From contig MU004188.1 of assembly GCA_010093605.1 (NCBI GenBank), positions 1,999,918 to 2,063,917 of the forward strand: a stretch of 64,000 nt of DNA, in the 5' to 3' direction. The position numbers and the translations under genes were made by a program. Under the pieces are notes generated by a model. That model did not search any database. It saw only the letters and a list, made by a program, of their open reading frames with translations, and had not been told where the DNA came from. The DNA comes from Lophium mytilinum. Lineage: Eukaryota. Each line of letters starts with the position of its first letter. The stretch's first letter is position 1. Positions 18,734 through 41,791 of this stretch are shown here, piece by piece.

Positions 18734-19489
18734 GGTGGTGTAGATGTGGGTATAGAACGATATGTAAAGAAGCAGAGGAGGCCATGAGTGAGCGGCTTTA
18801 TATATACGCGTAAGAGCTGTTGGTGGGTGAATTGATTCAAATGATCTATATTCTAGCCAGCAGCGACAGGTGAATGGATGTGAGTGGAGGAGTGTTGTCG
18901 CACGAGAGGCAGCAGTCGCGTTAGACGCGTTCGGCCGTTTTAACCGGGCCTGCTCTAGCGTCGGGGTTCACTCGGCCCGAAGTCTCCTTCAGCCTTCAGC
19001 CCTACCTCAAAGAGCCTCACCCTTCGAATCTACTTTCGAACTCAGTCTTTCCATAATCATCTTGGTAATACCAGCATACAGTTCTAAAAAGCGCTCAACT
19101 CGAGGGTTCATCGCCAAGATCGACGCCGCATCGAGTACTGTCCTGCCCAAGGCTGGAAATCTCCAACACAGAGAGCGCATGTCTTCTGTATTTCTGCGAG
19201 CCACGAATTTGACAGCTGCAACTTGTCCCAGAGGCTCATAACCCCCTTACACCATTGAATATATGCCAGTAAAGTTATGAACCGCCTCGAGACGAGCAGT
19301 CTGCCTCGCCTCGCTAAGCATGTGGCCGAGCTCTGACCAGGGTAATTTCTTTTTTTACTTATTATGTTTTTTATCCCTTAACCCGTCGCACTTGGCTCTA
19401 CGATATCGATAAGAATATAACCAATATGAAGCTTCAAGTTATGAGAGCTGCAGCGAGATGCTTGAGCAACACATGCCCTCTAGGCTTTT

Positions 19490-20137: not shown

Positions 20138-21762
20138 ATGTTGCTACGGCGCAGGAAACTCTTTAAATTCATCTTTTATCTCTTTTACGCTGACCAAGCT
20201 TTCAATATCATCTCTCTCCTTAATGGAGTCTTACGGCCTTCATATATGAGCCCACCCCCACACTACCTACAACTCGCAACGCAGATCCAGGACTCCTCAG
20301 AAAGCGGTCGTGGTAACTCGTACGGGAAGAAGGTCTTCATTGCCGCGAACATCATCAACGAAGAGCTCATTCGAGGGAGTTGGGGCGATAACCTCCTTCA
20401 ACTCGTCGATATCTTAGGCCCAGAGAATGTCTTCGTCAGCATCTATGAAAATGACGCCGGGTACGGGACTCGCGACGCATTAATGGATCTCCGTGATAAG
20501 CTATCCTGTGAGTCCTTGTTCCTCTGAAGACCCGGTAGCCAGCGACAGTCTCGCTGAACCCCTCCCTAGGCAACACCTCTATCGTCGCCGGCGACCACAT
20601 ATCCCTATCAAGCTTTCCCACCGTCATCATCCCTACCACTGGTGAAGTACGCACGAAACGTCTCCTCTACCTCGCAGAAGTCCGCAACCGTGCCATCCTC
20701 CCTCTTCAAAGCGGTCTCTCAATCGACGCCTGGGCTGCTTCCCACCCCACTTTCAAGAGCGCGGCCACCACTCGATTCGACCGTATTCTCTTCCTCAACG
20801 ACGTCTTCTTCAACCCGGTCGACGCAGTCCAACTTCTCTTCTCCACGAATGAGGGGAGATACGACGCAGCGTGCGCGATTGATTTCGTGGGAAAGGTGAA
20901 GTTCCACGACACATTCGTAGTGCGTGATACAGATGGATATAGTCTGGGTCTCGCTTTCTATCCATGGTTTACACCTTCTGGCAGTGCTACTAGCCGGAAC
21001 GATGTTCTCTCCCAAACCGACGCCGTCCGCGTCCGCAGTTGCTGGGGCGGGATGGCCGCCTTCGACGCCGCAGTCTTTCAGCCCACACCGCCCCCGCTAA
21101 CCATCTCTCCAACCTCTCGAACGCCTGTTCAAGACAAGCAAAATTCTTTTGCAGGCGACACGACAAACTCCTCCCTCTCGCTACCGGGCCTTACATTCCG
21201 CTCCATAACCGAACCCTTCTTCGAAGAAGGCGAATGCTGTCTCCTCTTCGCAGACCTCGAGATTCGTCGCGCCGCAATCCACAACATGTTTCCTGCCTCG
21301 TCATCTGTTCAATCTCAGTCCAGTGACGCCAAGCCACTATCCGCAGGCGTCTTCATCAACCCCTACATCCGCGTTGCCTACTCCCCCGCCACCTGGGCCT
21401 GGCTTCCGACCGCTCGCCGCTATGAGCGCACCTTCCAGTTCCTGCAATACTGGAGATCCAAAACAGGACATTGGCCAGAACACAACTACCGCCGCACGCA
21501 CGAGGCCGGCACGATGGTGGAAGAGCGCGTCTGGGTGTCGGAAACGGTTGGCGTGGAAGAACGGCGCGGGCTTTTTGGGAGACGGGTGGGGTCGGATCGG
21601 ATCGGGGGAAGGTGGGAAATACAGAGGAGAGTGGCGGATGCTGGGGGCTGGTGCGGGCAACGAAGAATGTTTTTGATGAAGAGGGACTTGGGGGAGGCGA
21701 ATCGGGATGGGTGGGGGCAGAACTGGGAAGAGGTAGACGTGCCGGGCGGGAAGGGGCAGTAG
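20138..21762 (+). CDS. Glycosyltransferase family 69 (CAP59/CMT1-like alpha-1,3-mannosyltransferase)
   Basis: N-terminal anchor, VFIAAN, LGPENVFVSIYEND, one intron (~20508-20569), YLAEVRNRAILPL, RILFLNDVFF, YDAACAIDF, VRSCWGGMAAFDA, ECCLLFADL. Confidence 0.85.
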
Positions 21763-22893: not shown

Positions 22894-24120
22894 CTACCCT
22901 TCTAGCACAGCGAGAGACCATTCTTCTTCATCATCCTCAAAATCGAGGTAATGCACCCCTTCAAACTCTTGTTCCGTAGCGAAGAAACCAACATCCTTTG
23001 GTAACACTTCCTCAGTATCTACCGCAAATTCATCCACTTCGTCTTTCCGGTTCATGAACCCTGCGTCCCCTGGGTCGTACGTCTTCGCTATCAAATTGTT
23101 TTCGCCTTTCCACGACCAGCCCTCTTTCTTGATGATGTGCAACCGATAGGCAAGAATAGGGTCGCCCAGTACAGTCCAAGTGTCTGCAAGATGAGGATTT
23201 AGTCAATCAATGTCTCAAGTCGACATTTGTAACTCTTACCTTTATTTTCTCCCCCTTGATCGCCCTCCAAATTGCCCTTAACAGTCGCCTCCTGCGTTAC
23301 ATGGCCCCCTCCACTCACCGCGGCCTTATGCTCGTTCGCTCGCTGATTCGAATACCGAAGGCCCTTCGCGATCTTCAGCCCCGTGACAACATACACCTAT
23401 AGGGCCCGGACAATGTTAATAGATATCACATAAACACGGCACCATTATTCCGCTCTACAGTACTTTGCTATAAAGATCCGTACACTCTTTTGCCCCTATA
23501 TGGCGGATGCCCGTACTAATAAAAACTGGGGGTCGCGAATGTACAGTACTTCCCGTCTATCTGTGTACATCCTGCTGACGCCGTCTGGGGTAGCGTCGCG
23601 AGCTCTACCGTCGTCCAAAATGCTGAAGTTCTCTCTCTTTTGGATTGCCCAAAATACGATAAGGCTCCCCATGCAGCGACGAACGAGTATACGGATACAT
23701 ATAACGAGACAATGTACTTACCGGACCATTCCGCAACGCGCTTTTAAACTCCTCATCCTTCTCCCGAAACCTCTTCGCGTCCGCGGCCGTCGGATTCCGC
23801 TCCAGATACCACGCCGCGGCCTTGTCAAACGCGTAGATCGTCTTCAAGGAGCTGCTGGTCTTGGCCTCCGCCTGCCCGCCGAAAACGTCGTAAAGTTTCG
23901 CGGAGAGGCCCGCGTTGAGCGAGGCGTGGTGCTCGCGCTCGGTTTTGCCTTTGCTGTAGCCGGCCCCGGGAATGATCTTCGGCAGGGGGTCGAAGAAGGT
24001 GATGGGGTCTTGCGGGAGGGTCATGTCGGTGATGACGTTGCCGATCTTGATGGGGCCGTTGAGGCGGAATTCGAGATCGGGGGCGCGGAGGTAGAATTTG
24101 CGGTCTTTTGGGGCTGGCAT
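22894..24120 (-). CDS. Fungal gasdermin (RCD-1/HET-Q1-like pore-forming protein), 281 aa, 3 exons
   Basis: Exons 24120-23722, 23396-23240 and 23183-22894 have canonical GT-AG introns and splice in frame. Motifs FYLRAPDLEF..GPIKIGNVI, YAFDKAAAWYLE..PT, PVYVVTGLKIAKG and DPILAYRLHII, plus an acidic C-terminal tail, match my knowledge of fungal gasdermins. Confidence 0.85.
23458..23714. mobile_element. 257-bp MITE (family B) inside gasdermin intron 1
   Basis: TA|cagtactttgctataaagatccgtacactc ... gagtatacggatacatataacgagacaatg|TA: imperfect ~30-bp TIRs with TA flanks. Removing it leaves a 66-bp intron. Confidence 0.7.
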
Positions 24121-24662
24121 GTTGGGGAGAGGTTGGGTGAGTATGAATGGAGTTTGCTGGACTCTGCGTGTGAATATTACGGAGCTTGAAGAGTCGAGAA
24201 GACTTAGTGACGATGCGGGGTAGTGCCAGCAGGCTTCAGCTCGCCGGTCAAGGCTGAAAAATACCATGCATATGCACGATAGGCGGCAATGCATGATATC
24301 CTTGTAGATGGATGGTGATTGGTCGTAAGCAAGGTCATGTGGCGTTGGCACGTGATAGGGACCCATTGATGCCGTCGCATGGTCGTTTGCGGGGCTCTCA
24401 CGTACTCTTAGAAACCAGGATGAACGAGTAAAACTTAAACTGCTACAATGTCTTGACACTGTCTGCAGTGGCCTCGTGAGTTTAGTAGTCGTCTAAAATG
24501 TCGTACCTTTCTCTTTTTCGGAACGCCGAAAGTACTATAAGGCTCCTCAAACAGCTGTAAACGAGTGTACAGTTGTCTACGATGAGTAATTATGATAGGG
24601 ACGTATCACGCTGGAGGTTGCGGTACAGCCATAAGATTTCTACGAAGGAACGGGGGTATATA

Positions 24663-24894
24663 CAGTGGCGAGCTAGAGGTGTGATGCACACCCGTCTACC
24701 ACCGCTTGGGGTACCCTCATGGGGTTTCAACCGTCTAGGTGTGAGGTCAAATTCTAGGTAGTGCATCAGGGTACTGCTTGACTCACTACCCACTGGCTAC
24801 ATAGGCTGGGCTAATCCTCTTAGTGGTGTCAATTAAGCAAGATTGATGCGGAACAGTAATAAGTCCGTGTGCCTAGACTAGTAGCCTGATACCG
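24663..24894. mobile_element. MITE family A copy (~232 bp) between gasdermin and protease
   Basis: TA|cagtggcgagc...taccaccgcttggggtacc ... gtgtgcctagactagtagcctgataccg is colinear with the 36700-36926 copy. Confidence 0.7.
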
Positions 24895-24948
24895 CAGCAG
24901 TCAAACGGGGGCCTTCACAACTCGTTCAAGGTGAAGGCATTTAGACTG

Positions 24949-27900
24949 TTACTTCCCCTGCTTCAAGTTTGAAGCACCACTCAGTGCAATCTCAAAGTTC
25001 ACCCGATGCTCCTCCTTCGAGTGGTTATCGAGTGTGATATAGCGCTTCCGCGCTTCTGGCTCAGTCGAGAGCTCATACAGCAAGTTTTGGAAACCTTCAA
25101 ACATCCTGATGTTGTCCCACGACCCCTTCTCGTCGTAAATGTTGACATAAGCAACGACAATCGCAGCAATTGCAGCCGCAACGGCAGTCGCTGCGGATGT
25201 TCCAGTCCTGTTGATGTACTGTGGTTCCAACTTTCCTCGGTTCGAAGCTGGAACCTCCAGACCCAGCGTTCCAAAGACCTCTCCTTCTCGCTCAGGAAGG
25301 GAAGGGTTAAAATCTTCATGCTTCCCCGTCGAATTTGTTCCCCGAATCGAGAAAACCGTAGGGTGTTTGGCTGGGAACAGTTCGCGTTTGCTGCCACCTA
25401 GATTCGAAGCCGCAGCAAAAATCAACAGATTCTGATTTCGGTGCGAAAGTGCCTTAGAAATGGCGTTACTGATGACGCGGTTTTCGTCGACGCGTTGCTC
25501 CTGCTCCCAGCCTAGAGATAGAGACACGATGTCCGCATCTTGCTCCTCGACAGCCCAGAGGATAGCCTACGACGGTTTTATTAGCGATGAGGTATGTAAA
25601 GGCATATTGTTCGGTGCTTAAATACCTTAGCAAGGTTATTGCTAGTTGTTTTTGGATCTTCCTTCAAATCGGCGTCTTTGCCTGCAATACGTGCGACACA
25701 AATATCTGCAAAGGGTGCGATGCGATGGATGATTGAAAGCATAGCTGTTCCATGTCCTTCATTGTCTTGCGGCACGGTTTCAGACTTCCAATAGTCTTTC
25801 CAATTATAGTTCCCCGTCTCTGATGCGGAGAGCATGTTCAGCCGCTGCTTCAGCTTCCGATCCGCAAAGCGCGATCCACCGTCAAATCCAGTGTCTATGA
25901 TGGCAATTTTGGGTCTTTTCAAGTCTTTGATTCTATCAGAGACGTGACTATGCAACCAGGAGTTCGTAATGTTGTTGAGCCAGTCCCAGGACAAAACACT
26001 ACAAACTAATTAGCTTGAAAATTGAGGACGGAGGTACGTTAGGCATGAAAAAGGTGGCATGGTCAGCAATTATCTTGTTTCATGTGATCGTGTGTACACC
26101 TGTCTACCACTGTTTGAAGTGCTTGAACAGTTTCTACTTAGCCCAAAGCTAAGAATTTCCATCCTGTTCATATTATTTGAAATGTGTTGAAGCACTACAA
26201 GCAGCGGCTGACTGGTATGCACATGATAGAATGCTTGCTGAGTGTAACACGTTGTCATACCCAGCGTGGGAGGGTATCTCACACCTTGGAGTTTTGGGCG
26301 CTTTGTTGACGCTATCTTCAGTCTGTAACACAGACGGCTCGTTAGAGCGTGACATCTTTGGTGGCTCGAATGCCCTCTCACCCGGATCCGCCATGTCTTG
26401 AAACAGTTCGAACAGAGGGCGGACAACATGGTTTTTGAGTGCCAATCGTCTCCCTACAGCATCCAGGTGCTTCTCAAACAGGGGCCTGGGGACTTCTGGT
26501 TGAGTGGGGATGCATTCTTCAACAATGCGTCGGTATCTTGGCTTGGCTTTGGCCGGCAGCTCTATCGTGGGCCATGCAATATCTGCAGATATTTCGCAGC
26601 AGGATACGTAAAGGCCGTTACTCTTCAAGGCACCAGTCAGATGTGTGGCGTTCCCAGTGATGGATGGCTTGTCAGAAGTGATTGAGCCTAACTGGACTAA
26701 AAGTAGGCCAAGATTGAAGATATAAGGAAATGGGTGTAGATAGGGTGCCCCACTTGAAATTTCAATAGGTTCGTGCTCGTGGTTTGTTGAATCTTCTGAT
26801 TCAGCGGACTGAATCTTGAGGAATGGTGCTTCGGAGTCGGGGCTACTCGTTTTTTGCAGAAGTTGTATTGTTTCAAGGCTCCATTCCACGTTCATCCAAT
26901 CTGAGTCGTAATATTGCCAGAATGCTTTTGCTATGGTAAAAGCAAGAAAAATCTTGTGCCTCGCAGATAGTTCGTCTTGTTTTAGTGCCGTGGAAAGAAG
27001 CATAGGTGCGCCTCGCGGTGGAAAGATATTTGAAAAAGAAGCTTCTGGACTCCAGCAAAAACTGTGAGTCTCCAAACTCTTAGAAACGAGATTCTTAGTG
27101 ACATGAATGCGGAAGCATCTTATGTTCCATGTCAAGATTTTGCAGAAGTCATCCAGCGCTGTGAGAGACGTTTTATGGGTCGACGGTTCGTTCGTGGCGT
27201 CTTCAGGATCTTCAGAGCCTCTGGTTTCTCTATAGTAAATCAGCTACAATTCGCAGAATCCTTCTATACGTCGACGAACCTGGGAAGCTGAAACTGTACA
27301 GGCGTCCATTCGTGACTCTCGTCCCCTTTGTAAGCGACGACCGAGTCAAAGAAGCAATGATTGTCATCGCCAGGAACCTGTTGATATCCGTCCAGACGCA
27401 AGGCACAAACGTACTCTTCTGATAAGCATACGGCTCCACCTTTCCCTAAGCATGTACATGGCAGATAGGCACTTGTGTGAAAAGTTTTGTGTAGAGCTGT
27501 GGTAACTGACTCGGAGTATTTTTCCAGCTCGAGTCTCTTTGCAGAACGACGGTTTTCTGGCTCCTCGCTAGGTTGCGAAATATCGTTAGACGAAGTATCG
27601 CGGAGTGAAAGACAATCTGTGACGGTTTTGATCGCTGCTTGATTCGATGAAGACATCGGATCTAAAGTTAGTTGTCGTGCAAAACTTTTGATATTTTGAG
27701 CAGTATTCTGTGTCGTCGCCTGCTGGCCCTAAAGCTTAGAATATTAGCCTCGGATATAAACTTAATATCTGAGATCAATACGAACCAAAGTTTGAGCAAA
27801 CACATCCCTCGTTGTAGACACAGCCCCTGACTGCTCTTCAATGCTTGCAGTCTTGATAAATGTGCTGAGCTCAAATAGTTTAACGCTGTTGATTGTGTTG

Positions 27901-28043
27901 CGGAATGCCCTGAGCAGCCCGCCGGGCTCAGAGTTGTTGCATTGTTGCGCTTCTTCCGCGATTTCTCCCGCAGCATCAGCGATAAGAAAATCATAATCCC
28001 AGTCTTCTTCAGCCAAATCGTCTTCCAAATAATTACCACTCAT
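24949..28043 (-). CDS. Subtilisin-like (S8) serine protease with long N-terminal region (HET-Q2-like), ~880 aa, 5 exons
   Basis: Exons 28043-27786, 27728-27280, 27229-26285, 25998-25626 and 25566-24949 splice in frame. Catalytic motifs: KIAIIDTG (Asp), NEGHGTAM (His), FAAASN (oxyanion Asn), TGTSAATAVAA (Ser). No signal peptide, so probably intracellular. Confidence 0.9.
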
Positions 28044-28243
28044 AGCTGATATGCGAAGCAGAGGGACACAACAGGCTTGACGGGGAGCGAGAACGCGACG
28101 CTTTGAGCCTCTCCGGCCCCGCAGTTCCGGCCCCCACGAAACTCAGCTGAACTTCGGGGAAGAACACCAACTGGATCTAGAACCTGAGTTGAACCAACTT
28201 CAGTCGCCATCTCTGCTGCCTGCCTGCCGGCTTTGATCAAAGG
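28044..28243. promoter_or_regulatory. 200-bp putative bidirectional promoter shared by the S8 protease and kinase-HET genes
   Basis: Head-to-head ATGs at 28043 (-) and 28244 (+). Confidence 0.5.
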
Positions 28244-31200
28244 ATGACAGAAACCCTTCCGAGGAGTACAACGACCGAGATCACAGGCGAGCTATTCCCG
28301 ATACGCGTAGCTACTCACTTATGCCGGCAAAGACTTCAAGAATGTGCCAGTCAACCGTCCCTGCGGAAGGCTCACTGGGCGGAGAACCGTTCCAGTGACT
28401 TCAATCTGTGGGATTCTGGAGTTGGCGCCTGTGCGAACGAGCTGAATTGTTTGGATAAGCGTTTAGAGAACGACGTCTCTGCGCAGAAGGTCGTCATCGG
28501 CGCCCTCAGCACTCTTGCAGCGTGGACGACGAAGTGTAGGCAGCTGGCAGAAGCGGTAGAACCTAAGACAGGATCGCCGGACCATCCAGCTAGGAGCAAT
28601 TCACTGTCTACCAACGAACAAAGCACAGATCCAACCGACAGCATAACGCTGGACCAAGCGAAGAGCACGGTTGAAGGATTGCTCAAGATTCTTGTTGATC
28701 TAGAGATTGCAATAAGGAAGGCTGGTACAGCTTCTCGCGTGAGGAGGGCGGACCGCACATTCAACAAACGAAGGCATCGTTATGCGGAGCTCTCGAATCA
28801 TCTTGAGTTCATTCTACGAGTCTCCGGAGCCCCTCGACGGAACCATAGCTCATCGGACCAACGCTCTGCCCTGCCTGAAACCGACGAAATTGATGTCGGA
28901 TCTGCACTTGACCAATTATGGGGAGAGAAAGCTCCTTTACGTCCTGAGCAGCAAATACTCCTCCTTGCCAACATAAAGCGCACTGACCGTTTCCTGTTCT
29001 ACAAGGGGCGGCAAGTGCAGTTACAATCCGAACAAGCGGAAAAGCCTTCTCAGGCTATACGTGTCCAGGTCAGGTCATCTCGCGCCCAGCCTTCAGATTC
29101 CCCCTTAAAGGGCGATGAGCAACCTCGGCAATTATTGAAACCATTGACGAGCAAACATGCTACATCAGCTCAGTCTCAGCATTCCACTGGCACCACTAAT
29201 CAGGCATCGGATTACGTACCCAGTTCATCGCTGGAGAAAGCCACCGAGGTGACATCCCCAGATGTTGCAGCAACGGCAATCGCCCTTCGCGCCGATTATC
29301 CTAAACCCCCAAAAGATAAGACGAAGTGCCCCTACTGTTTGATACCTTTCAGAGGCGAAGCTGACGACATGCGTCGGTGGAAGTAGGTTCTATCCATGGC
29401 CCCACCGCAGACAAATATACTGATCATGTAGGAAACATGCCGCGGAGGACCTTCAGCCTTACACGTGCTACTTGCCGAACTGTCCCCAACAGTATCCTTT
29501 TTTCAATACTTTTGACGCATGGAAAGCACATGTCCTCTCAAATGAGCACAAGCGGTTTGAAGGGCGGACTTGTTTGCTTTGCCGATTTTCCTCGAATCCC
29601 ACCGAGGAATCAATCTTCCTGGACCATATTCAAGACAAACACTCCAACGCGTTTGCAAAAGAGTCTTTAACAAATTTTGGAAATATGTGCCGTCGATATA
29701 CGGCGCCGGCATTAGATAGATGTCCGGTATGTTCGACATACGCAAATGATTGGAAACTACGCAAAGATAGTGATATGAAGTTTGAGCCTAGAGTCAAGAC
29801 ATTTCTGGAACATATCGGGCAGTGTATGCACTACTTTGCTTTGAGAGTGCTGCCAGAGACCGAGCCCGAGAAGACTGGGGACGGATCCGGCCAAAACCTG
29901 ACCAATGGCACACCCATCGAGGACCGATCGTGGCCGTCTTGCTATCTGCATGTTTCACATCACTCAGACGGACTTACAGAGACTGAGCTGGAAGTATTTC
30001 CAGAGCTCACCCACCATGACCTGGTTGATAACGTTCGAAGAATGCAGACTTGGGTTGAGTTAACGGAAATCATGGACGATCCAGATTCCCTGGACGAAAC
30101 GATGCGCTTGGACCGTAGATATGACATGAACCACAGGGAAAATTCAATCGAAGCTATTGAAGGTGAGGCTACTGGTGATGTTGAGCTGGATGATGAAGAC
30201 TTCCTTTTTGAGTCATCTCCTTCGAGCACACTGGAAGACAGACTGTTGAAATCTTTTGTAGCCAGCACTTTCGATTCTCAGAGGCAGTCTTATCTTCCCG
30301 AAGGTCGTATTGTAGAGCTGGTGACAGCGGAGAGTATCACAGAGGAATTGGAGTTGGATCATCTTGACCCGAGCACCGCAGCCAAGTTCGATCAATCTCG
30401 GCAAGCTGAACTCGTCGACTGGATCCTCAACGGCGCTAGAAAATTATTCGCCATTTGCGTCGAGTGCGGCATTCTACCTCGGCGCAACATGCTGGCAACG
30501 TTTTTGCGATTCCGGAAGTACGGTTTTGATGATAAGAGCCTGCCTATTCGAAACCCAAGAGACAACTCTAGGCCGACTGCGAGCAACTCACCGGATCCAG
30601 TTTTTCACGAGCAGGTATGGTCCATGTTCAAACTCCACAACTTCTACGAGAAGCAGTGGAAGTATCTCGTTCCCGTCTTCGGATCAAATCAGTATGACTA
30701 CGATCTTCCATCTGATTGCATTCTACCTTTTCAAACGGATAGAGACGACACCGGACAAGGGGCCTTCAGTAGCGTCTACAAGGTCAAAGTTCACCCTGAT
30801 CATATGAGACTTGAGAATTCCGAGAAGGTAAGCTAGATTTCCAGTGTTTTGTCATGTTGTTGACACCTTCTCTAGGTTGCTATCAAGGAGATCAAAGGCA
30901 TCAAATCCAGAGGGGACGACGCGATGAACACTAACGCAAACTGGGAACGGGAAGCAAGAGCACTGCGAACGATCGGTACCATCAAGAACGAGCATATAGT
31001 GAACTGCATTGCTGCCGTAAGGAGAGGCGATAGTCGCTACTTCATCTTTCCTTGGGCAGACGGAGGCAGCCTCAGAGATTTATGGGAGGAAACTCCTAGG
31101 CAATTTCTGGAGAGGCGAATCATCAAAGAAGTTATTGTTCAGCTCCGTGGTATTGCAGATGCCCTTGACAGACTCCACAATTTCCGCGGAGCGAAGGCAC

Positions 31201-34200
31201 ACCAGGGAGATACACCATCGACACAAGTGCCATCGATACAAGTGGTTGATCCAGATGAGATGGCACAAGACGAAGACGGGTACTTTGAAAGCACCGAGCC
31301 TATAGAATCCATTCGACACGGTGACTTGAAACCGGAGAATATCTTAAGATTTCCATCTAGCACATCCACCATCGGCGAACTTCGTATAGCAGATATGGGA
31401 CTCGCAAAACGTCACAATGTCGAAACAGAACTTCGAACTCGCCTTTCGAGTACGAGATACGGCACTATGCTATACGAAGCACCTGAGGTAGTGACCCTAG
31501 ACCAAGCCAGATCACGGCTCTACGATATTTGGTCCATGGGATGCATCACATTAGAGTTCATCATCTGGATGCTATATGGGAATGACGAACTCAAGAACTT
31601 TCACAAGCATCTCCAGGGTGATAAATACCAAACGTCTCAATTTTTTGAAATACGGAACATTGATGGGCGCAAACATGCCGCGGTGCATTCAGTCGTTCGA
31701 TACTGGATAGACTATATACGCAACACGGACCCCGAGTGCTCGCAGAACTCTGCGATGAATGACCTTCTCAGCATCGTTCAGGAGAACTTACTCGTTGTCT
31801 CCTTTCCTCCTAGAAGGGCAGGCTCAATGTCCTCTGCTCAACCCCTATCGGACGCCAATCTAGGAGAAAAATCCACTCGATATCGTGCAACAGCTAGAGA
31901 ATTCCGAGAATCTCTTGACAGGATACTGGAGAAGGTAAGTAAAGACCCAACATATCTACTGACGGGGAAAAGCCGTGCAAATTTGCAACCACCGGCAACC
32001 ACGCGAACGAATCTTCTAGCGGTCGATCGTCCACTCAGAAGTGGGATGCTAGCCGATTTTGCGACGGAGAGGTACAGACACCCGAGCCTTACGTTGAAAT
32101 CTAGCTTGAGAGGAGTAAGTCTCATCTACCTATCTTTAACAACAACCTACTAAATCAGATAGGATGTAAGTTCATGTGTGACTTGCGACTCAAGGACTTC
32201 ACTGACAGCAAGTTTCATTTGCTCCTAACAGTATGTAAGTAATTTGTGAGCAACAATGAAACTCTCCGCATACCACGGTTGACTACACTGAAGACTGATT
32301 CGAAATTTCAAGCATAATATGGTAAGTCACATTGTTCCTACTTATGCTTGATATGTACTGATTAGTGTTTGTAGCCGGTACGTTCGGCTTTGAACAGCAA
32401 TCAAGATCCTACTAACCTGAAGGTGATTCGACTCCAAAGCATGTAGGTCGATCGCAACACCACACCCATAGATCCATCGAACCACTAATTCGAAGAAAAA
32501 GCTGGCCGACTGGGAATTTCCTGTGGATAATGAATTTGCGACTGGCGTTTTCAGAACGTGGGGCCTACACATACCACATGATCCGCATTTTAAGGCCCCT
32601 ACGAAATTGTGTCAACGATGCAATGTCCTCAACTTCTGGGCCGGGGGCTTCGATCTTGAAGACAGGATAGCAGATCTGGAAGCGAGAGCATCAGACTGTG
32701 ACTTCTGTCGAATGCTTCGTTCCATTTGCGCAAAGCATGAGGCGGACCACTTCCCAAAAGTACGATTCGAGCGATCGCAATCGAACCTCGTACTAGTATC
32801 TCCCAAGCCAGTAATAGCGCTATCAATTCTTCGAAGTTACGGTAAGTGTAACAAGGTTCCGGCCTATCTATTACGAAGGCCTGCAGTCGCTAACAAACGC
32901 CGGTCAAGAACTGGAGACTCCGCTTCCCATCCAGCTTGGGTTGCCTGAGCTACTTGCAGCGGGATCGGATGGCAGCTTCGACATCATGAGGGCTTGGTTA
33001 GACGATTGCGATACGAACCATGAAAACTGCCAACCCGATCGTGGTCCATACCAAACCAGTTCATATCCGACCAGACTGATTGATGTCGGCCATTCCAAGA
33101 GCCCCAAATTACGGCTTGTGGTTCCACGGACTGACTTCCAACCTTTTGATCAAGACAACGGCGGCGCACGAGAAGAGCAATGGATCGCTCTCTCCCATTC
33201 TTGGGGTAACCCTGCAAAACAGAATATGTTCTGGACAGGAAAAGATAACATCGAATCTTTCAGGCGAGACATTCCCTTCGAACAGCTACCAGCGACCTTT
33301 AGAGACGCCGTAATAACAACAAGAGCCCTTCACGTTCGCTACCTGTGGATTGATGCAATATGTATCCTCAATGGACCAGACGGCGACTATCACGAAGAAG
33401 CGAAACGTATGGAGGATGTGTTCAGTGGAGCACACTGTGTTATTGCTGCGAGTCGAGCCACAAGCCAAGCGGACGGATTTCTTAAGCCAAGACCACAACG
33501 CGAATATGTGAAATTCCAACGCGGCAGCGAGAAACCTTTCTACATGTGTGACCCAGTTGACAACTTCAATCAGGACGTCTTGGAAGGGCCTCTTAACCGG
33601 CGTGGCTGGATATTGCAGGAACGCGCTCTCGCGCGGCGCACGATCTTCTTCACAGATACACAGACATATTTTGAGTGCGGTAATGGCGTGCGGTGCGAAA
33701 CACTCGTAAAGATGCACAAGTAAGTCGACGAACTTACATTGTCTTCAAAGACTAGGAAAATGTATTTCTGGTGCTAACTTCTCTCAGCAATATGGCAGAT
33801 TTCCTTGGAGATCCACACTTCCCCAACAAAGCTATGAGTCGACCCCGAAGCATGATGATTCTACACGTTCAAGATTTGTTCCGGCAGTACTCTAGACTAG
33901 CGTTTTCACACAACGCAGACAGACCTGTCGCCATCGCGGGAATTGAGAACCGGCTTAAGAAGGCTTTAGGGGTGGGCGGCAATTATGGCGTGTTTGATGA
34001 CGGCCCAGGTGGAGGTCTCTTCCACCGTGGTCTGCTCTGGCAGCGTGGAGAGGACGAAGAATCTCTGACCCCTATTCATTTTACGGATGGCGGCAACTGG
34101 AGGGTGCCTACATGGTCATGGATGGCCTACGACGGGGGTATCGATTACCTCGACCCTCCGTTCGACTCCGCTGAATGGGAAACGACTGATGTCCGACCCC

Positions 34201-34547
34201 CTAAACGCTTCGGGGATTTTGCAGGATTTGAGGATGGAGCTATAATGCTTCCAGCTATAGTGCGGGACTTCAGCGTTGCTAGAAGAGGCATAGACGAGGT
34301 CAAGTTAGTTTACGATACTGATAAGCGCGACGGCATCGACAGGCAACGGCCCCAGTGCGTTGTTGTTGCGAAGTCTAAAACGGAGATGACGGCACGAGAA
34401 AAGACTTATTATGTCCTAATAGTTGTCCCCTCTTCTGCGCTTCACGGGTTTCCTAGCGAAACGATGTATGTGCGAGTGGGTGTAGGAAGAATGTTGGGAA
34501 AGTACATCGCTTTAGGTCAGCCGGGTATTCCGAGTATTATCAGCTGA
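28244..34547 (+). CDS. Helical N-terminal / C2H2 zinc finger - Ser/Thr protein kinase - HET domain protein, ~1900 aa, 11 exons including 5 micro-exons
   Basis: Exons 28244-29382, 29432-30827, 30876-32114, 32163-32165, 32232-32234, 32313-32321, 32375-32377, 32440-32442, 32502-32841, 32909-33719 and 33788-34547 give one open frame. C2H2 motifs: CPYC..WKKH..DLQPYTC, CLLC..HIQDKH, CPVC..HIGQCMH. Kinase motifs: GQGAFSSVYKV, VAIK, HGDLKPEN, DMG, APE, DIWSMG. HET motifs: PTRLIDVG, ALSHSWG, YLWIDAICI, RGWILQERALA, PTWSWMA. Confidence 0.85.
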
Positions 34548-34579
34548 AGTACGTATTTACTATAACTTAACAAGCTGTT

Positions 34580-35051
34580 AGATCCCTCTCACAATGCCAA
34601 AGTTGACACACTAGAAATCAGACTACCTCTTAGCCGGTGGTCCACCTGCTAGCTGGGGAACCTCTCATAGTGGCGTCGATCAATCACAAAGGAGCTTAAG
34701 TAGTGTAGTATCGAATTCATTGGCTTTTCATGCTCCGCTCAGGATGCTAAAGTTGACACAGCGAAAAGCAGACTACCGTTTGGCCGGCCAGCTACCTGAT
34801 GTCTACGCTAGTCCTGACAGCGCTATCCAGCGATCAAAACGGGCTATCAAGCAGTGTTTTATTCATGTGCTAGCTAAGGTTCCTAAGCTTTCCACCTTCG
34901 CTCGCGATGTCAAAATCAATACAACGGGAATTGGACGACTCTTCGTTAGACTGTGTACAGGTTGGTCAGGGCACCCTCGCAGTGGCGTCGAGAGAGCAGG
35001 TGTGGAACCGAGTAGTGGCGATTTATGTGCCCAGATTTTGACCTCCTATTG
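34580..35051. mobile_element. MITE family A derivative with three degenerate ~155-bp internal units
   Basis: Recurrent aaagttgacaca..agactacc motifs near 34598, 34749 and 34912. Ends atgtgcccagattttgacctcctattg|TA, like the family A right terminus. Confidence 0.5.
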
Positions 35052-35056
35052 TAGTC

Positions 35057-38000
35057 TTACACAGAGACATCTTCGGCCCCTTCGTTGCCGGCGCTTCGCA
35101 TCAAGCTATCGAAGAATGCCATGTCAACGCCCTGGAATGCCCAGTCATCTCCTCCTGCGGTCAGCCCAGGATACTCTCCATGCGGTAAGAGTGGATCGGA
35201 ATAGCCGCTGGGTAGTTGTTGGGATGCACAATGCGTAGCCATATCTTGGGCCTCAGGAGCCGGAACAGGAAGATCTCCCAGCTGTGCTTGGCTTCTGGCG
35301 TAAGGATCTGGTTCTCCTAGTGATAGCAACGGAGAGACCTCGACATGGCCGTAGACATCATGAGCCTGTGTAGGAACCACCCCTTTGCTCACGCCCTCGC
35401 GAGCAATCTTGATAATGCCAAAATACGGAATATGCACGCTCACTCCAGCATCATCATCTTGATCCGGTGGCGCTGTCCCAGGTCCCGCTTCCTCTACACT
35501 CACCCTCCCAGCGCAGCCTAAATGCCCATCCGCCGTCTCCACCTCAATCGCCAGCAACCGCCGCAGCAGATCCGCGCTCTGCGCACTAAGCGCATCTGCG
35601 TTAACACGATTCAACTCCTTCATATTCTCCTGCGCCTGCTCAATCATCGCGCGATCGCTCAGATACTGATGCGCCAGCAGATTTTCCGCCTCTGGGGCGC
35701 GGTGGCTGTCTAGGTGTGCCAGTAGCAACGTCATAGCAGCCATAAGCGCGAGGAAGTCGATGATGCGGCAGCTAAACGCAATGCGGTTGAAGCTGCGCAG
35801 CGTAATGAAGCGCGAGAGTACCTCCCGCGAGGCATTGACGCACGTGATGCGGGAGTATTCGTATTGGCGATCGGCCGAGGAGGAGCGCAGCATGTAGGGG
35901 AGGTGGAGCTGGTTGAGGAGGTTGTAGTGGAGGACCTGCGCGAACAGTCGTATTGTGTCCCAGAAAAGGGCTTCTGAGTTCGTTGAGGCGGTTTCGAGAT
36001 TTGGAGACAGCCACCATTTGCTGGGGAGCCCCCTGGCTGCTCGTTGCAACTCTACATCGAGTGTGCGAGTTAAAGCGAGGTCTTGGGAGCTGGGATTAGA
36101 TTCGTTGCGTTCCAAGATTCGAGAGGCGAGGACGCAGTGAATTCGCTCCAGGCGGCCCAACGGGGTGTCGTTTGCGAGCATTGCGTCGGAGGCTATACTA
36201 CGGTCCAGGGAACCTTGGGGAAGGCCCAACATGAGACAGAGCTGGCGGTCCAAAAAGAGCGTGCGGAACCACATGATTTGTGGGTGATATTCAGTCTTGG
36301 GATCAAGCACTTTGAATTGTGCCCGATTATCCGACCGGTTGAGACCCATCAGCTGTGCGATACTCATAGCTCTCCGATTCGCTACCCAGCCTCGTCGGAG
36401 ATTCCCCATGTTCATCTTCGACGTGTTAGTGCACATGGCGTGTTTGTGGCTTACAACGAGGGGGCTTGTAGAGTGAAAGGCCATAAGTCTGTGCACACTG
36501 GTTCACCACCGCTTGGGGTAACTCCATCAGACTTTGAAAAGCTAGGGGCAATGTCATGTTTCATGCAGTGTATATAAGACTGCTTCTTGAGGAACTAGCT
36601 GCTTAGCAGCTAGGCTACCCCACACGGCGGTGTCCAGAGAGCAAGATTTGAGCCAAGCCGTGATGAACCCGTGTGCCCAGATTTAAAGCGTACCTAGTAC
36701 AGTGACAGGCCACAGGTCTGGGCACACTGGTTCGCCACCGCTTGAGGTACCCCAGCAGGCTCTCGAGGACTCAATGCCTACACCAAGTGTTAAGCAGTAC
36801 AAATTAGACTACCTCTTGACTAACTAGCTGCTCAGCAGCCAGGCTACCCCGAACAGCGGTGGCGAGTAAGCAAGCTGGAGCCGCGCCGTAATGAGTCTGT
36901 GTACCCAGACTTATGGCCTAGTACTGTACCTTACTAGGGGACCTTACGCACCTGATACATAGTCTCGATCATAACGCACTCTAGACCTTCAAGGCTCCCA
37001 AGGAGCTCGTCGTTTGTTGTAACGAGACTACTAGCACGATCTGCTAAGCGTTCCATGATAGCTCGTGGCGATTCCGATAGGCCCCTTGCCTCCTCGTGAA
37101 GATCAGGAGGAACATGGAGTAAAACTTAAAGTTGCAGTACATATGTCAGCGCAAGTTTCACGAAGGGTTTTTAGGACAGCTACTGGCTCCCCTGCTGTCA
37201 ACTGTCACCATGTGCCACTTAAACGTGTTCAAACGTCATTTTGACGTAAGTTGCTTGTTCCGGGGACAATAAGACCAGAGAGACTGGTATGAACTAGAAC
37301 GTTACGTACAAATGGCGAGCTGGAGCATGTGCCTCGATATCAGAACGGGATGCACGTTGGGTCCCGGAAACTCCAGTAAGCTTTCGGGTAGTTTCAACCC
37401 GTTTTTGTCGAGCGTGGTGTACGGTATAGTCAACACTTCGTGGGCGAGGGCGCAATGGTGACGGCTGGCTTTGCATAGCTTCTTCATGTCTTCGCGCGAA
37501 GGAAATGCGTCATGCAAGACGTGGCACAACTTCTCGAATTTACCCTGTGGGGCTGGCAGATCAGCAGCTGCATCTCCGCCATTCCCACCGGCTTGGTCCT
37601 AGTAAATATAGTCAGTAACAATCAGAGGAGTATAGGTGTCATTTTGAGGGCACATATATCTCTCTGAGGACCCTCATGCCTAATCAGTTTCGTAATTCAA
37701 TGATGTCAAGTTCTCGAGCCTGTACATGGGGTATCGAGCTTTCGGTACTGAGTGATTTGCGCGGTAAGGCCAATATCTATGGTGCAGAAAAAAAGAACCA
37801 GATTCAGGAGCTCAAGGACTAGACATCGTTCATCTATGAATCTGAATAGGTATGAGAGGCTTCAGAGAAGTACACTCTTGACCCAAACGACACGCAGACA
37901 CGTTCGAGCTATGTAATAAGCCTAAAGAGTAGAAGGATCAAGGTGCAATAGAGACGAGCTAGAATCCCAGGCGCGGAAAAATGACACCATGAACATTCGA

Positions 38001-38644
38001 AAGGAGATGGTCCAGGGAGTCCTCAGAAGAGTTTTGTATCTGAAAGATAGTCCCCCAATTCATGGGCTCGGAGACTTGACATCAATGATTGTTGAAAAAT
38101 GAATAGGTAAGGGCGATCTTAAGAGCGTACGTATACGGTCAAAAGAACGCCGCAAGACACCTAATTTGTGCTAGTCGGTTGAAGGGAAATGAATACGTGC
38201 CTTAGAGTACTTGTAGAAAGCTAGAAATCGTAGAGGCTCTGAAGTCGTTGACGCGGGAGTGAGAATGGCATGGTCGGTCCTACAATCTTCGCTACGGGTC
38301 GTCGTGGGCGTTCTTCCCTCAGAACTAGTGCCATCGTCACGAGTAGCGTGCCTAACGGGTTGTTCAATTACAATTCCGTTTCCCACAACCCCTTGGTCCA
38401 TCAGGTCCGCGAGCAAGACGTCTTCGGGGAACTCCTGGCTGATACATTTAGAGCCCCGTCGCCGACAGCCCTTGCAAATGGCCTCGGTGTCAAATATACA
38501 CCTCATCTTCCGCCGCTTGCATTCCCAGCAGCTACGGGTTCCCTTGCGCACTTTTCTTCTCTTGACATAAGCTGGGTCTGTATCCTCAGCCGGAGCTTGG
38601 CGCTGGCGTGACGTTACCAGACGCGGAGATGTTGTAGCATCCAT
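35057..38644 (-). CDS. Zn(II)2Cys6 fungal transcription factor (multi-exon)
   Basis: KRRKVRKGTRSCWECKRRKMRC..CKGCRRRGSKC binuclear cluster. Approximate exons 38644-38201, 37598-37310, 37126-36952 and 36415-35057. Fungal TF middle region: LEGLECVMIETMYQ/MNMGNLRRGW, FLDRQLCLMLGLP. Confidence 0.85.
36471..36697. mobile_element. MITE family A, 227 bp, in TF intron (copy 1 of tandem pair)
   Basis: TA|gagtgaaaggccataagtctgtgcacactgg ... gtgtgcccagattt..|TA. Same length as, and colinear with, copy 2. Confidence 0.75.
36700..36926. mobile_element. MITE family A, 227 bp, Tc1/mariner-pogo type ends (copy 2)
   Basis: TA|CAGTgacaggccacaggtctgggcacac ... gtgtacccagacttatggcctagtACTG|TA: terminal inverted repeats with TA flanks. 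Confidence 0.85.
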
Positions 38645-39969
38645 GGCCTCAACGGATGGTGATTTACCGGCGGAAAGACTTCGAGCGCTACTGGATACAA
38701 ACAAAGCAAGATGAGAAATGCGGAATGGGAGTTGCTGCGGGCGGCGGAGGAAGGGGACCTTTTGAGGGCGGACGAGTTGGCGACATTCGACCGTGAACAC
38801 GGCGGACGAAGATGCAGCTAGCAGGCATTGGGCATAAAGTGGCAGTCCAACGCCGTATGGGGTGGCTCCGAGAGCTATCAGCCTTGTCATAACTGTTGGC
38901 CTTCAAATTTTGTTGACATGTCAGAAGACCTCAGGTGGTACCAGGCAAGCGCGTAAACAGACAGAAAAAGGAGTTTGAATGTCGAACAATGTAAGCGTCA
39001 TCTCCGAACCACAACTTCGTAGACTGCCACCTTGTGTTCAAGGGGTCCTAGGTGGCATGGATCTAACCGACCACGTGCCGACGTCTGTCATGCTTCGACC
39101 GCCACAACGCTCTGACTGCCCCTCCTATCCAACGAAAACACCGAGTCATTACTGCAGGGCCAGGCTCCGTTCAGCATGAAGTATTACTGCATGCCGTCTG
39201 AGACGGCCGGGCAAGCTATTGGGTTTGGCAAACCTGTAAGCTTACCGTTTCTGATACTAGATCAAGGGACCTCAAACGGTGCTAAGTGAGTGCACACAAG
39301 CATAGCCTTAACTTGGAACGGCAGTGTTGGAATAGATTCGCGGATTCGTGGACAGCTAGCTGTTTTTCAAAGAACCATGAGGACAGAGATAAAGCTGGCC
39401 AGGCTAACTATATTAGGTCTAGTACAGGCTTCGCTAAACTCAAAACCATCGAGCGCCTCACGAGACTTACCCTTCTTTAACTCACTTTGGCTCGTAGATC
39501 AGTCATTTCATAGATGAGTCCGCCGAAATGCTACACAGATCAATCGTCCTTTACAGAATAGGGGTTTAATATCAGTCTCCTACTTCACAATCCTCCAATG
39601 TGAAGCTCACATAGCCAAATAAGCGAGACTTCTGCGCCGTGAACCACTATCATATGCGCTATATTCGTCCACCCGCACCCCCTTTGACTCAACCGCAAGT
39701 ATTGAAATGGAATCCACTTTGGCCGTATTAACCCTTCTTTTCGCCAGAATTGCTAATCTAACGTATATAACAAGCTGTAGTGTCCAACGATTTCGACCGT
39801 GTCATCGACAGGATCGACACGGCGGACGAAGATGTACCTGACCTTTCCTCCGGTACTGATGCGCATACTATAAGTTGCGGCTTACCTACGAAGCTCCCTT
39901 CTGGTTCAACAGACCCTCTTTCCTCCTCAGCAATCCGGCAATACACAGCAACGCGGAAGAGCCAGTAAC

Positions 39970-41791
39970 ATGTCAGTCCAGAGTCCAGAGTTTGAGAGCA
40001 GCAAGCGAGCCGAGACGGAGGCAAACAATTCGACAAGCTTGAATAGCAACGGCGAGCATTCCCGGACCCACAGTATCCAAGAGAAACAGGATGGCGGCGC
40101 ATTACCTGCGCTTGACCGGCCCGAACCCGAATATGCGACCGGCTTACGGCTATTTCTCGTCATGTTCACCATCTTCATGAGCACTTTCCTTATCTCCTTG
40201 GAGATTGGTATTATCGCTACCGCGATTCCTGGTATCACCGACTCATTCCACCGACTCGACGACGCTGGATGGTATGGAAGCGCCACTTTCATCCTCGCAG
40301 GCGCCGCCTCGCCAATGTGGGGAAAGGCATACAAATACCTCAACGTCAAGTTCGTCTACCTTACTTCTGTCGCGTTGTTCCTAGTAGGAAGCATCGTGGC
40401 CGCCGCTGCTCCCAACAGCGTTTCTGTAATCATCGGTCGAGCCCTTCAAGGCTTTGGAGCCTCCGGTACTCTTAGTGGTTCCGTCCTCGTCATCAACTAT
40501 GTCGCCCAGCCTAAGAGACGCCCAGTGCTGATTGGTAGCTGGATGGGCGTCTTCATGACATCGACTATCCTGGGACCTCTGATAGGGGGCGCCTTCACGA
40601 GCAACCTCACCTGGCGATGGTGTTTCTGGATCAATCTTCCTCTTGGTGGTCCCATCGTCGTCCTATTAGTGCTGTTCTTGAAGGTACCGAAGCACATAAA
40701 GCCTACCCCAGCCACATGGAAAGAGATTGTTCTGCAGCTTGATCTTCCAGGTTTCAGCCTTTTGCTTGCATCGATTATTTGCTTCACATTGGCCCTGCAG
40801 TGGGGTGGACAGACCAAAGCGTGGAATGAAGGCTCCGTCATCGCTACCCTGGTTCTTTGGATCTCTTTTATCATTATCTTCGTCATTGTAGAGGGGCTCC
40901 AGGGCACACGCGCGATGGTTCCGCTAAGGCTACTCAAACCTCGGGTTGTATGGGCCAACGCCTTGTACTGCTACATGTAAGTTCCTGCTACCCACCTAAT
41001 CACTTTGTCTTTAACATAGCTAACCAAAAGCCCCTCATCAAGCTCCAACGCCGCCGACTTCCAAGTCATCTTCTACCTTCCCATCTACTTCCAGTCCATC
41101 CACGGCCAATCCGCCATCACAAGCGGGGTCAACAGCCTCCCTTTCTTAGCCTTCTTCGCTCTGGGCGCCATGGCCAGCGGCGTCGTCATCGGAAAAACAG
41201 GCCTCCTACAACCCTACCAGCTGATTAGCGCGCTTTTGATGACCGCTGGCATCGCTCTGCTTTACACTTTGGGCGTCGACTCGTCCAAAGCTCGATACAT
41301 CGGCCCTCAGGTTCTCTTCGGGTTTGGGCTGGGTCTCGGTAATCAGATCCCCATGACGGCTGTGCAAGGTTTCTCGAAGCCTGAAGACGTGGCAAACTCA
41401 ATTGGCATTATGCTCAGTGAGTCCCTATTGCCTATTTAACGCTCGGATTTCCACTAATGCTGGAATAGTGTGCCAATCCATTAGTGGCGCCTACTTCGTT
41501 GCAGTTGCGCAGTCTCTATTCGCGAACCGCATGCTGCAAGCACTTAAGACTTTTGCTCCGAATATCAACGCTCTTACGGTCATAAGCACGGGTGCATCTG
41601 AGATTCAGCATGCTTTCAAGGGCGGAGATCTGGTCGCTGTGCGCAGTGCTTATATGGTGGGGATCAAGGACGTTTTTGCGTTTTCTTTAGCTGGTTCAGC
41701 ACTTACTGTCCTCATTTCCTTTGTGATTCCGTTCAAGAAGCTACCTGGTCATGAGAGCAAGAAAGCTGAGAAGACGGTGGCGGCTGTCTAG
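39970..41791 (+). CDS. MFS drug:H+ antiporter (DHA2, 14-TM toxin efflux type)
   Basis: IATAIPGITDSFH..DAGWYGSA, IIGRALQGFG, LGPLIGGAFT..WRWCFWINLPLG, FYLPIYFQSIHG. Two introns. Confidence 0.92.

Follow-up and report, generated by a model that had tools for sequence, protein, structure and literature searches.

A gasdermin-like gene, a HET-Q2-like protease gene and a divergent module-kinase gene at a candidate pyroptosis-like locus of Lophium mytilinum

The 64,000-nucleotide (nt) stretch of the Lophium mytilinum genome analyzed here (contig MU004188.1, positions 1,999,918 to 2,063,917, referred to as the window) contains a gasdermin-like gene, an S8 (subtilisin-type) protease gene and a divergently transcribed third gene that encodes a helical domain, Cys/His zinc fingers, a protein kinase and a HET domain. 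The locus is read here as a pyroptosis-like module of the HET-Q1/HET-Q2 type, in which the module-kinase neighbor would be a third component controlling a protease of this subtype, and we give this reading a probability of about 0.45. Gasdermin/protease pairs are already established in fungi, and the new part is the third gene's N-terminal module, which together with a kinase recurs beside such a pair. No published description of the three genes together (gasdermin, protease and kinase/HET) was found in a search that lay outside bioRxiv supplements and subscription journals.

Under this reading, the S8 protease would cut a short acidic C-terminal tail off the gasdermin-like protein, probably after a Gly-Phe pair, and the pore-former would be released. 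The constant part of the divergent neighbor would consist of a module of about 590 amino acids (aa), composed of a helical domain and four Cys/His fingers, and a kinase, followed by a tail that varies, being a HET domain in the window and a vWA-like region in a second locus (L004). The module would dock on the N-terminal region of the protease, the kinase part would relay a signal that licenses the protease, and HET would be an added, lineage-specific effector. The cleavage, the docking, the phosphorylation and the direction of control are steps that we infer. A 2025 review regards the way these fungal proteases are regulated as an open question. An unlikely, wider version of the same proposal is a three-component subclass in which a module shared with NLRs would dock a kinase onto a sensor-less DUF7580-S8 protease and phosphorylation would license gasdermin cleavage; this would amount to a kinase-gated pyroptosis-like cascade, with the module serving as a death-fold-like adaptor across NLRs, kinases and caspase-like (CHAT) proteases.

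Locus layout and the gasdermin/protease pair

L. mytilinum is placed in the Mytilinidiales of the Dothideomycetes in the supplement of Clave et al. (2022; PMC8851545). The protease gene ends 828 nt upstream of the gasdermin-like gene in the same orientation, and the third gene occupies the plus strand (28244-34547), leaving a divergent gap of exactly 200 nt between the protease ATG at 28043 (minus strand) and the third-gene ATG at 28244 (plus strand). A first-pass annotation, made from the sequence alone, had placed all three genes, the co-orientation of the pair and the 200-nt gap correctly. The features are as follows.

22894..24120, minus strand: gasdermin-like gene (HET-Q1 family), 281 aa; exons 24120-23722, 23396-23240 and 23183-22894
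24949..28043, minus strand: HET-Q2-like protease gene, 880 aa; exons 28043-27786, 27728-27280, 27229-26285, 25998-25620 and 25566-24949
28044..28243, no strand: head-to-head intergenic region from protease ATG to third-gene ATG, 200 nt, read from the sequence
28244..29382, plus strand: third gene exon 1, predicted N1 helical domain with the first zinc-finger cysteines (CPYC) at its 3' end (homology and AlphaFold2 [AF2] model)
29432..30068, plus strand: third gene Cys/His zinc-finger region (end of homology, conserved Cys/His columns)
30753..31800, plus strand: protein kinase domain (Pfam, alignment A4, RNA joint)
32115..32501, plus strand: kinase-HET linker (sole confirmed joint 32442>32502)
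32502..34547, plus strand: HET-domain part, exons 32502-32840, 32908-33719 and 33788-34547, with the Pfam HET match at 33181-33621
34549..34621, plus strand: intron in the 3' untranslated region (UTR) of the third gene (RNA joint 34548>34622, GT..AG ends)

Transcript evidence comes from the contigs of the only public run covering this stretch (X1), which is labeled "RNA?" as a guess. The contigs are read as spliced transcripts because 14 joints skip 48 to 325 nt with GT..AG or CT..AC ends. Twelve of these 14 joints lie within the three genes, and 10 of the 12 fall exactly at predicted introns; the introns skipped comprise both of those in the gasdermin-like gene, two in the protease gene, and five in the third gene plus one in its 3' UTR.

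The gasdermin-like gene has a coding sequence (CDS) of 846 nt in three exons, corresponding to 281 aa, and the X1 joints across its introns are 23183>23240 and 23394>23720. Its relative in Phialocephala subalpina (P0002), with 282 aa, fits this gene model and is 90% identical across exon 1. When a profile of 16 relatives was compared with the PDB, RCD-1 chains made up four of the seven matches, including the top three, with scores that are weak yet specific (8jyz_A, E 0.007; 8jyz_B, 0.066; 8jyx_A, 0.067). RCD-1 is the Neurospora gasdermin. These top profile matches and the membership in the HET-Q1 family bear out the earlier proposal of a 281-aa gasdermin-like protein and indicate homology with the characterized fungal gasdermins (HET-Q1/RCD-1 family). 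The Atlas model of P0002 (pTM 0.65) yielded matches that serve as leads only, the best being a fungal cluster labeled Bact_GSDM (TM 0.58), followed by bGSDM (0.48), pejvakin (0.48) and gasdermin D (0.44). The protein has no match in Pfam, a single-sequence search of exon 1 against the PDB gave 0 matches, and an AF2 model built from 16 sequences has a pLDDT of 37, which is too low to use.

A Gly-Phe pair lies at about residues 227-228, approximately 53 residues before the C terminus, and is followed by an acidic C-terminal tail. The two residues (G228 and F229 of alignment A1) are invariant or nearly so, and by analogy they are probably the counterpart of L237/F238 of HET-Q1 and the putative cleavage point. 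The closest relatives of the protein are found in the Leotiomycete P. subalpina (90% identity) and in Eurotiomycetes (69% and 63%), and those in Dothideomycetes reach only 41-61%, a distribution that makes horizontal transfer of the gasdermin/protease block between classes possible. No named L. mytilinum protein occurs among the database matches, which include only a raw read-through open reading frame (ORF; P0001), and the gene is absent from the L. mytilinum pairs of Clave et al. (2022), so it looks unannotated in the public record. It is covered by spliced contigs although it is seemingly unannotated. One further contig, at 23368-23749 on the plus strand, keeps most of gasdermin intron 1 and skips 23541-23593 with plus-strand GT..AG ends, and it has the look of a spliced transcript running antisense to the gasdermin-like gene.

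The neighboring gene encodes a protein with an N-terminal region of about 560 aa that includes a DUF7580 domain (E 2e-9), followed by a Peptidase_S8 domain (E 4e-20), both found on the public model P0140 ("subtilisin-like protein"). X1 joints were found at 27727>27785 and 25998>26285, and the second of these gives a length of 880 aa, compared with 888 aa in P0140. The translation contains the triad motifs IIDTG, GHGT and GTSAA, with the Asp, His and Ser codons, by our own count, at approximately 25895-25893, 25754-25752 and 25197-25195, respectively. The Pfam S8 match and these motifs agree with the first-pass description of a subtilisin of about 880 aa with a complete triad. No signal peptide was visible by eye. 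The S8 domain, the full Asp/His/Ser triad and the gasdermin neighbor are those of a HET-Q2-like protease, and the profile comparisons that had been suggested earlier assign the small gene to the HET-Q1 gasdermins and the S8 gene to the HET-Q2-like proteases. A protease is adjacent to the gasdermin relative, as is often so for fungal gasdermins, and the same pairing occurs in L004, in L003 and in Exophiala spinifera. The protease has no repeat-type sensor domain, and its N terminus carries just the DUF7580-containing region. A single-sequence PDB search with the DUF7580 region gave 0 matches, and no mention of DUF7580 was found in the papers searched.

Orthologs of this protease are included in the published data sets. 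The E. spinifera ortholog KIW21359.1 (P0143) is listed in Dataset S1 of Clave et al. (2022; PMC8851545) with the het-Q1 homologue KIW21361.1 as its partner, and the P. subalpina ortholog CZR67103.1, which is about 85% identical to the window protease by eye, is listed as HET-Q2-like in Dataset S2, as is KIW21359.1. Consecutive numbering suggests that P0005 (PV08_01941) is KIW21361.1, the protein retrieved with HET-Q1 in that study; the E. spinifera tags 01939 and 01941 leave one gene in between. The HET-Q2-like protease table of the same study, which by the paper's own statement covers 1,601 proteins, contains 53 occurrences of the DUF7580 hallmark WQYY. The three L. mytilinum pairs in its data sets (patatin-S8, TPR-S8 and CVNH-TPR-CHAT) are at loci other than that of the window. 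By homology, the gasdermin/protease pair is an ordinary, additional and unannotated member of the published HET-Q1/HET-Q2-like class. Two models from Cladophialophora immunda (P0141 and P0142) show the orthologous protease fused to a Zn2Cys6/Fungal_trans transcription factor; the fusion probably stems from two genes having been merged in annotation, which points to a transcription-factor gene between protease and gasdermin in that lineage.

The divergent gene and its N-terminal module

The third gene has RNA joints at 29382>29432, 30825>30874, 32442>32502, 32840>32908 and 33719>33788, with another in the 3' UTR (34548>34622), where the intron begins two bases past the stop codon. One contig of 2,231 nt lies on exon 2 and extends past both of its introns towards the helical and kinase exons, and because it crosses these two introns, the helical N terminus, the zinc fingers and the kinase belong to one transcript. 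The first part of the public model P0020 ("HET-domain-containing protein," 1,180 aa; start at 30126, intron 30828-31088, join 31976>32496), which removes the VAIK region by splicing, was rejected, as the 2,231-nt contig shows a 48-nt intron at 30828-75.

The kinase is of the eukaryotic type, with a Pfam Pkinase match (E 1e-22) and the catalytic Lys and the Asp residues of HxD and DxG in place. Its VAIK, HGD and DMG motifs form invariant columns of alignment A4; the G-loop (GQGAFS) begins at 30753, and the VAIK Lys, HGD Asp and DMG Asp are encoded at 30885-30887, 31323-31325 and 31392-31394, respectively, with the intron at 30828-30875 falling inside the domain. Comparison with the PDB gave generic Ser/Thr kinases (the best being STK17A, MAPK and CDK2, E ~1e-7) and no particular family. 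The HET domain (PF06985) is full length (E 4e-26, profile positions 1-146 of 146), and the HET part is 46-58% identical to its relatives. No Pfam match to NACHT, to NB-ARC or to C-terminal repeats was found on the exons of the third gene, which by its domain content shares a module with NLRs (STAND proteins) and is itself not an NLR.

A direct join of 32114 to 32502 would give, by arithmetic, a CDS of 5,685 nt and a protein of about 1,894 aa. The linker from 32115 to 32501 admits 125 in-frame GT..AG paths, among which sequence alone leaves the choice undecided, and the sole contig reaching into it runs unbroken for 69 nt up to the 32442>32502 joint, with an in-frame TAA at 32413-32415. Fused relatives (P0161 and P0021-23) have about 11-21 residues across this stretch. 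The linker is a string of short intron-like units (GTAAGT...branch...YAG) parted by the 3-nt pieces GAT and TAT, which may be micro-exons; together they would encode Asp-Tyr, the "DY" that fused relatives have here. The first-pass annotation had described a helical/C2H2-kinase-HET gene of about 1900 aa. Its helical N-terminal domain, four finger motifs, kinase, HET domain and approximate length all hold, and its single ORF across the linker is called into question by the in-frame TAA of the sole contig.

The first 380 aa of the third gene (N1) are predicted to be all-helical and carry the hallmark motif DFNLW. N1 has 453 representative relatives at E<=1e-3, in which the match is nearly always N-terminal. 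Homology with P0144, P0146, P0160 and others continues through the zinc fingers and stops near 30056-30077, so that, taken to about 30068, the module is approximately 590 aa long. Conservation of its four Cys/His finger motifs extends to at least 11 of 12 family members, and zf-C2H2_AcuF appears on 16% of members (Atlas; a lead only). Neither N1 nor the finger region has a Pfam family, and as far as these searches reach, the module is undescribed and constitutes the new part of the locus.

A census of architectures covered 37 long N1 relatives. Thirteen were NLR-type (NB-ARC or NACHT with TPR, ANK or WD40; P0146, P0184, P0266 and others carry the NLR-core domains), five carried a kinase, two a kinase and HET, and one HET; the rest carried CHAT (one), DUF7580 (one), PNP_UDP (two), other domains (four) or nothing known (eight). 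The two kinase+HET relatives, P0161 and P0269, match the window protein end to end. In P0195, the module is fused to a DUF7580 domain that matches the proteases of the window (E 1e-10) and of L004 (4e-11), and P0225 joins the module to CHAT. Among other Dothideomycetes, the closest kinase-HET relatives (P0021-P0026 and P0028, about 1,900-2,060 aa) have an N-terminal second, divergent kinase-like region in place of the N1-finger module, which indicates that the front end of the third-gene family is exchangeable; in the three that were mapped (P0021-P0023), this region is about 25% identical to the window kinase.

The AF2 model of N1 is all helix with a pLDDT of 75. Its best fold matches are the coiled-coil (CC) domain of Rx (Z 11.0, root mean square deviation 2.7, 103 residues aligned), Sw-5b (10.2) and the CC-R domain of NRG1.1 (9.7), followed by the N-terminal domain of MLKL (8.4), AtMLKL3 (7.4) and MLA13 (7.2). 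Designed bundles reach Z 10.4 against the same model, and the tool's caution line for helical models, at about 13, lies above all of these rows. Foldseek gave no match to the model (best E 0.33), and a single-sequence PDB search with N1 gave 0 matches. The sole profile match in the PDB, Arfaptin-2 (E 0.003), involves one helix pair only and was rejected as a homolog, being read as coiled-coil likeness.

Recurrence of the layout and the explanations it allows

Searching metagenome contigs with the gasdermin alignment yielded nine loci with a gasdermin relative (L001-L009). L001 and L002 are too short to show the layout, L003 contains the protease 3' end and gasdermin only, and L005-L007 have no S8 gene within reach; L004 alone includes the protease 5' end and upstream flank. 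In this 11.4-kb contig, protease and gasdermin have the same order and strand as in the window, and a divergent gene matches the window both in N1 (E 2e-39) and in the finger region (E 6e-34). This gene encodes, in order, N1, the fingers, a kinase with HND and DLG, and a vWA-like region with DDSASM. In a tree of 131 rows, N1 of the window and N1 of L004 belong to one clade of 33 rows (support 99). Collinearity between the two loci ends at the gasdermin stop; the L004 gasdermin is about 45% identical to that of the window and is followed by a GCIP-domain gene, with nothing like it in the window.

Two other contigs (L008:87-550 and L009:363-825, 97% alike) join a piece equivalent to window positions 28575-28718 to a piece equivalent to 23172-22851, in the same order and on the same strands as in the window and with 75-76% nucleotide identity. 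Here, 144 nt of the N1 gene abut the last gasdermin exon, the protease and the two 5' halves having been lost, and L008/L009 is best read as a deletion relic of the three-gene layout. L004 and the relic keep the layout, and L004 does so without HET, so it is the linkage of the divergent module-kinase gene that appears to be conserved and not that of HET; the vWA-like region in its place puts HET outside the conserved unit. On this comparative evidence, the divergent gene beside the pair is more than a chance neighbor. The first-pass proposal that the third gene belongs to the system is thus supported in part, for the N1-finger module and kinase, which recur head-to-head in the distant L004 and as a relic in L008/L009, and is not supported for HET, which is not kept. 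Likewise, the synteny comparison that it had suggested, run here on metagenome contigs, places a module-kinase gene beside the DUF7580-S8/gasdermin pair in L004 and does not recover the C2H2-kinase-HET combination as a whole.

A predicted complex of protease residues 1-560 with N1 scored 0.47 (runs of 0.44, 0.47 and 0.50), against 0.03 for the best control; the runs have 25% or more of their contacts in common, and partner pLDDT is no lower than 53. Of solved complexes, 51 of 78 reach the mark for a complex, as do 2 of 108 mismatched pairs and 7 of 44 neighboring pairs drawn blind. At the mark, scores of 0.60 or less came from just 5 of the 78 solved complexes and from all 4 passing mismatches of 180. 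The modeled complex lends weak support to a contact between protease and module.

Several observations weigh against control of the protease by the module-kinase gene. The complex score of 0.47 lies in a band that the tool rates as more often wrong than right. HET is absent from the divergent gene of L004, and the layout rests on one intact independent locus and one relic lineage, which is a tiny sample; the comparison, moreover, does not extend to the genes that precede the protease in E. spinifera, C. immunda and P. subalpina. The neighbor downstream of the protease is a different one in C. immunda, as the fused public models imply. With a gasdermin 90% identical to its Leotiomycete counterpart, the block may have moved as a unit, and the linkage could then reflect co-transfer and not function. 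The in-frame stop in the sole linker contig implies that the kinase and HET parts may not always be one protein. A reading of DUF7580 as a pseudokinase found no support, the hhalign probability of kinase likeness being 0.9%. In addition, N1 of the window is closest to NLR-type proteins (P0144, 69-71% identity; P0146, 57-59%), and four variants of the N1 hallmark occur 0 times among the N termini of the proteases tabulated by Clave et al. (2022), which indicates that fusion of the module to a protease is rare.

These points leave room for a rather improbable alternative, in which the third gene stands on its own as an immune-like or incompatibility gene (4-helix-bundle-like, kinase and HET) that lies in the same variable island as the pair, was co-inherited or co-transferred with it and has no mechanistic link to it. 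Fusions of kinase and HET are very common without gasdermin context: there were 238 matches, and among the 120 matches listed, most carry both domains; those without the N1 module are common, and none was seen beside gasdermins. The N1 module itself occurs on many unrelated architectures among the 37 long relatives, the Neocucurbitaria gasdermin relative and kinase-HET relative have distant gene numbers (024020 and 031630) on contigs of equal length, and the 90% identity to a Leotiomycete makes the block look transferable. Clustering of this kind is put down to joint inheritance by Wojciechowski et al. (2022; PMC9815663). This explanation does not easily accommodate L004, which preserves the layout at a gasdermin identity of about 45% and has a different flank past gasdermin, nor the fusions of the module with DUF7580 and with CHAT, nor the weakly positive complex score, for which the controls gave 0.03 or below.

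It is less probable still that the third gene is a second, parallel death arm, in which N1 would act as a CC/MLKL-like membrane effector together with a TIR-like HET domain, and the bidirectional 200-nt region would regulate this gene jointly with the protease gene. The genes are indeed head-to-head at 200 nt, the best matches of the N1 model are four-helix bundles with cell-death roles in plant NLRs and in MLKL (Z 7-11), and N1 occupies the N terminus of NLR-type proteins, the position of effector domains in fungal NLRs; the HET domain is full length, and such domains are TIR-like according to the 2025 review. However, Z scores below about 13 may reflect a common helical arrangement, as the designed bundles illustrate, Foldseek found nothing, and HET is missing in L004.

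The 26 flanking ORFs scanned included no Starship-type recombinase and no other mobile-element gene. The flanks at 16424-18967, 20539-21759, 35060-38902 and 39874-40977 encode proteins of DNA polymerase beta/lambda type, a CAP59-type mannosyltransferase, a Zn2Cys6 factor and an MFS transporter, and they have a housekeeping or ordinary look.

Comparison with known systems

Many HET-Q2-like proteases, including those of the DUF7580 class, are without a repeat sensor, which makes the step that controls them of interest. The divergent kinase gene with its unannotated N-terminal module is a concrete candidate for this missing control step. The N1 module, whose 453 relatives include fusions with an NLR core, kinase, HET, CHAT and DUF7580, is in addition a candidate shared signaling or effector domain of fungal immune-like proteins.

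Bacterial gasdermin systems also form multigene clusters, in which gasdermin and protease are accompanied by extra regulatory genes (adaptor or NLR-like), with domains that differ from those of the window. The arrangement of a four-helix-bundle-like N terminus followed by a kinase-type domain is likewise that of MLKL/RIPK3 and plant CC-NLR/CC-R proteins, and N1 matches the CC domain of Rx, the CC-R domain of NRG1.1, and MLKL; however, its Z scores of 7-11 are within reach of unrelated helical bundles, and there is no link at the sequence level. MLKL is a pseudokinase, and the window kinase keeps its catalytic residues.

Compared with fungal NLRs, the third gene has a kinase in place of the NOD domain. 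NWD2/HET-S is an example of a fungal NLR/effector gene cluster. Such clusters, and the fungal NLR N-terminal domains described by Wojciechowski et al. (2022; PMC9815663), resemble the locus in having an N-terminal module common to NLR-type and other signaling proteins and in the clustering of partners. The main text of that study lists 19 Pfam N-terminal domains, none of which is N1-like, and contains the terms "C2H2" and "zinc finger" 0 times.

The closest known system is HET-Q1/HET-Q2 as described by Clave et al. (2022; PMC8851545). The window locus differs from the published set in being absent from its three L. mytilinum pairs. It shares with HET-Q1/HET-Q2 a gasdermin-like gene of about 280 aa that adjoins an S8 protease gene with a full triad, and a short C-terminal tail that follows a hydrophobic or aromatic residue, HET-Q1 being cut after F238.

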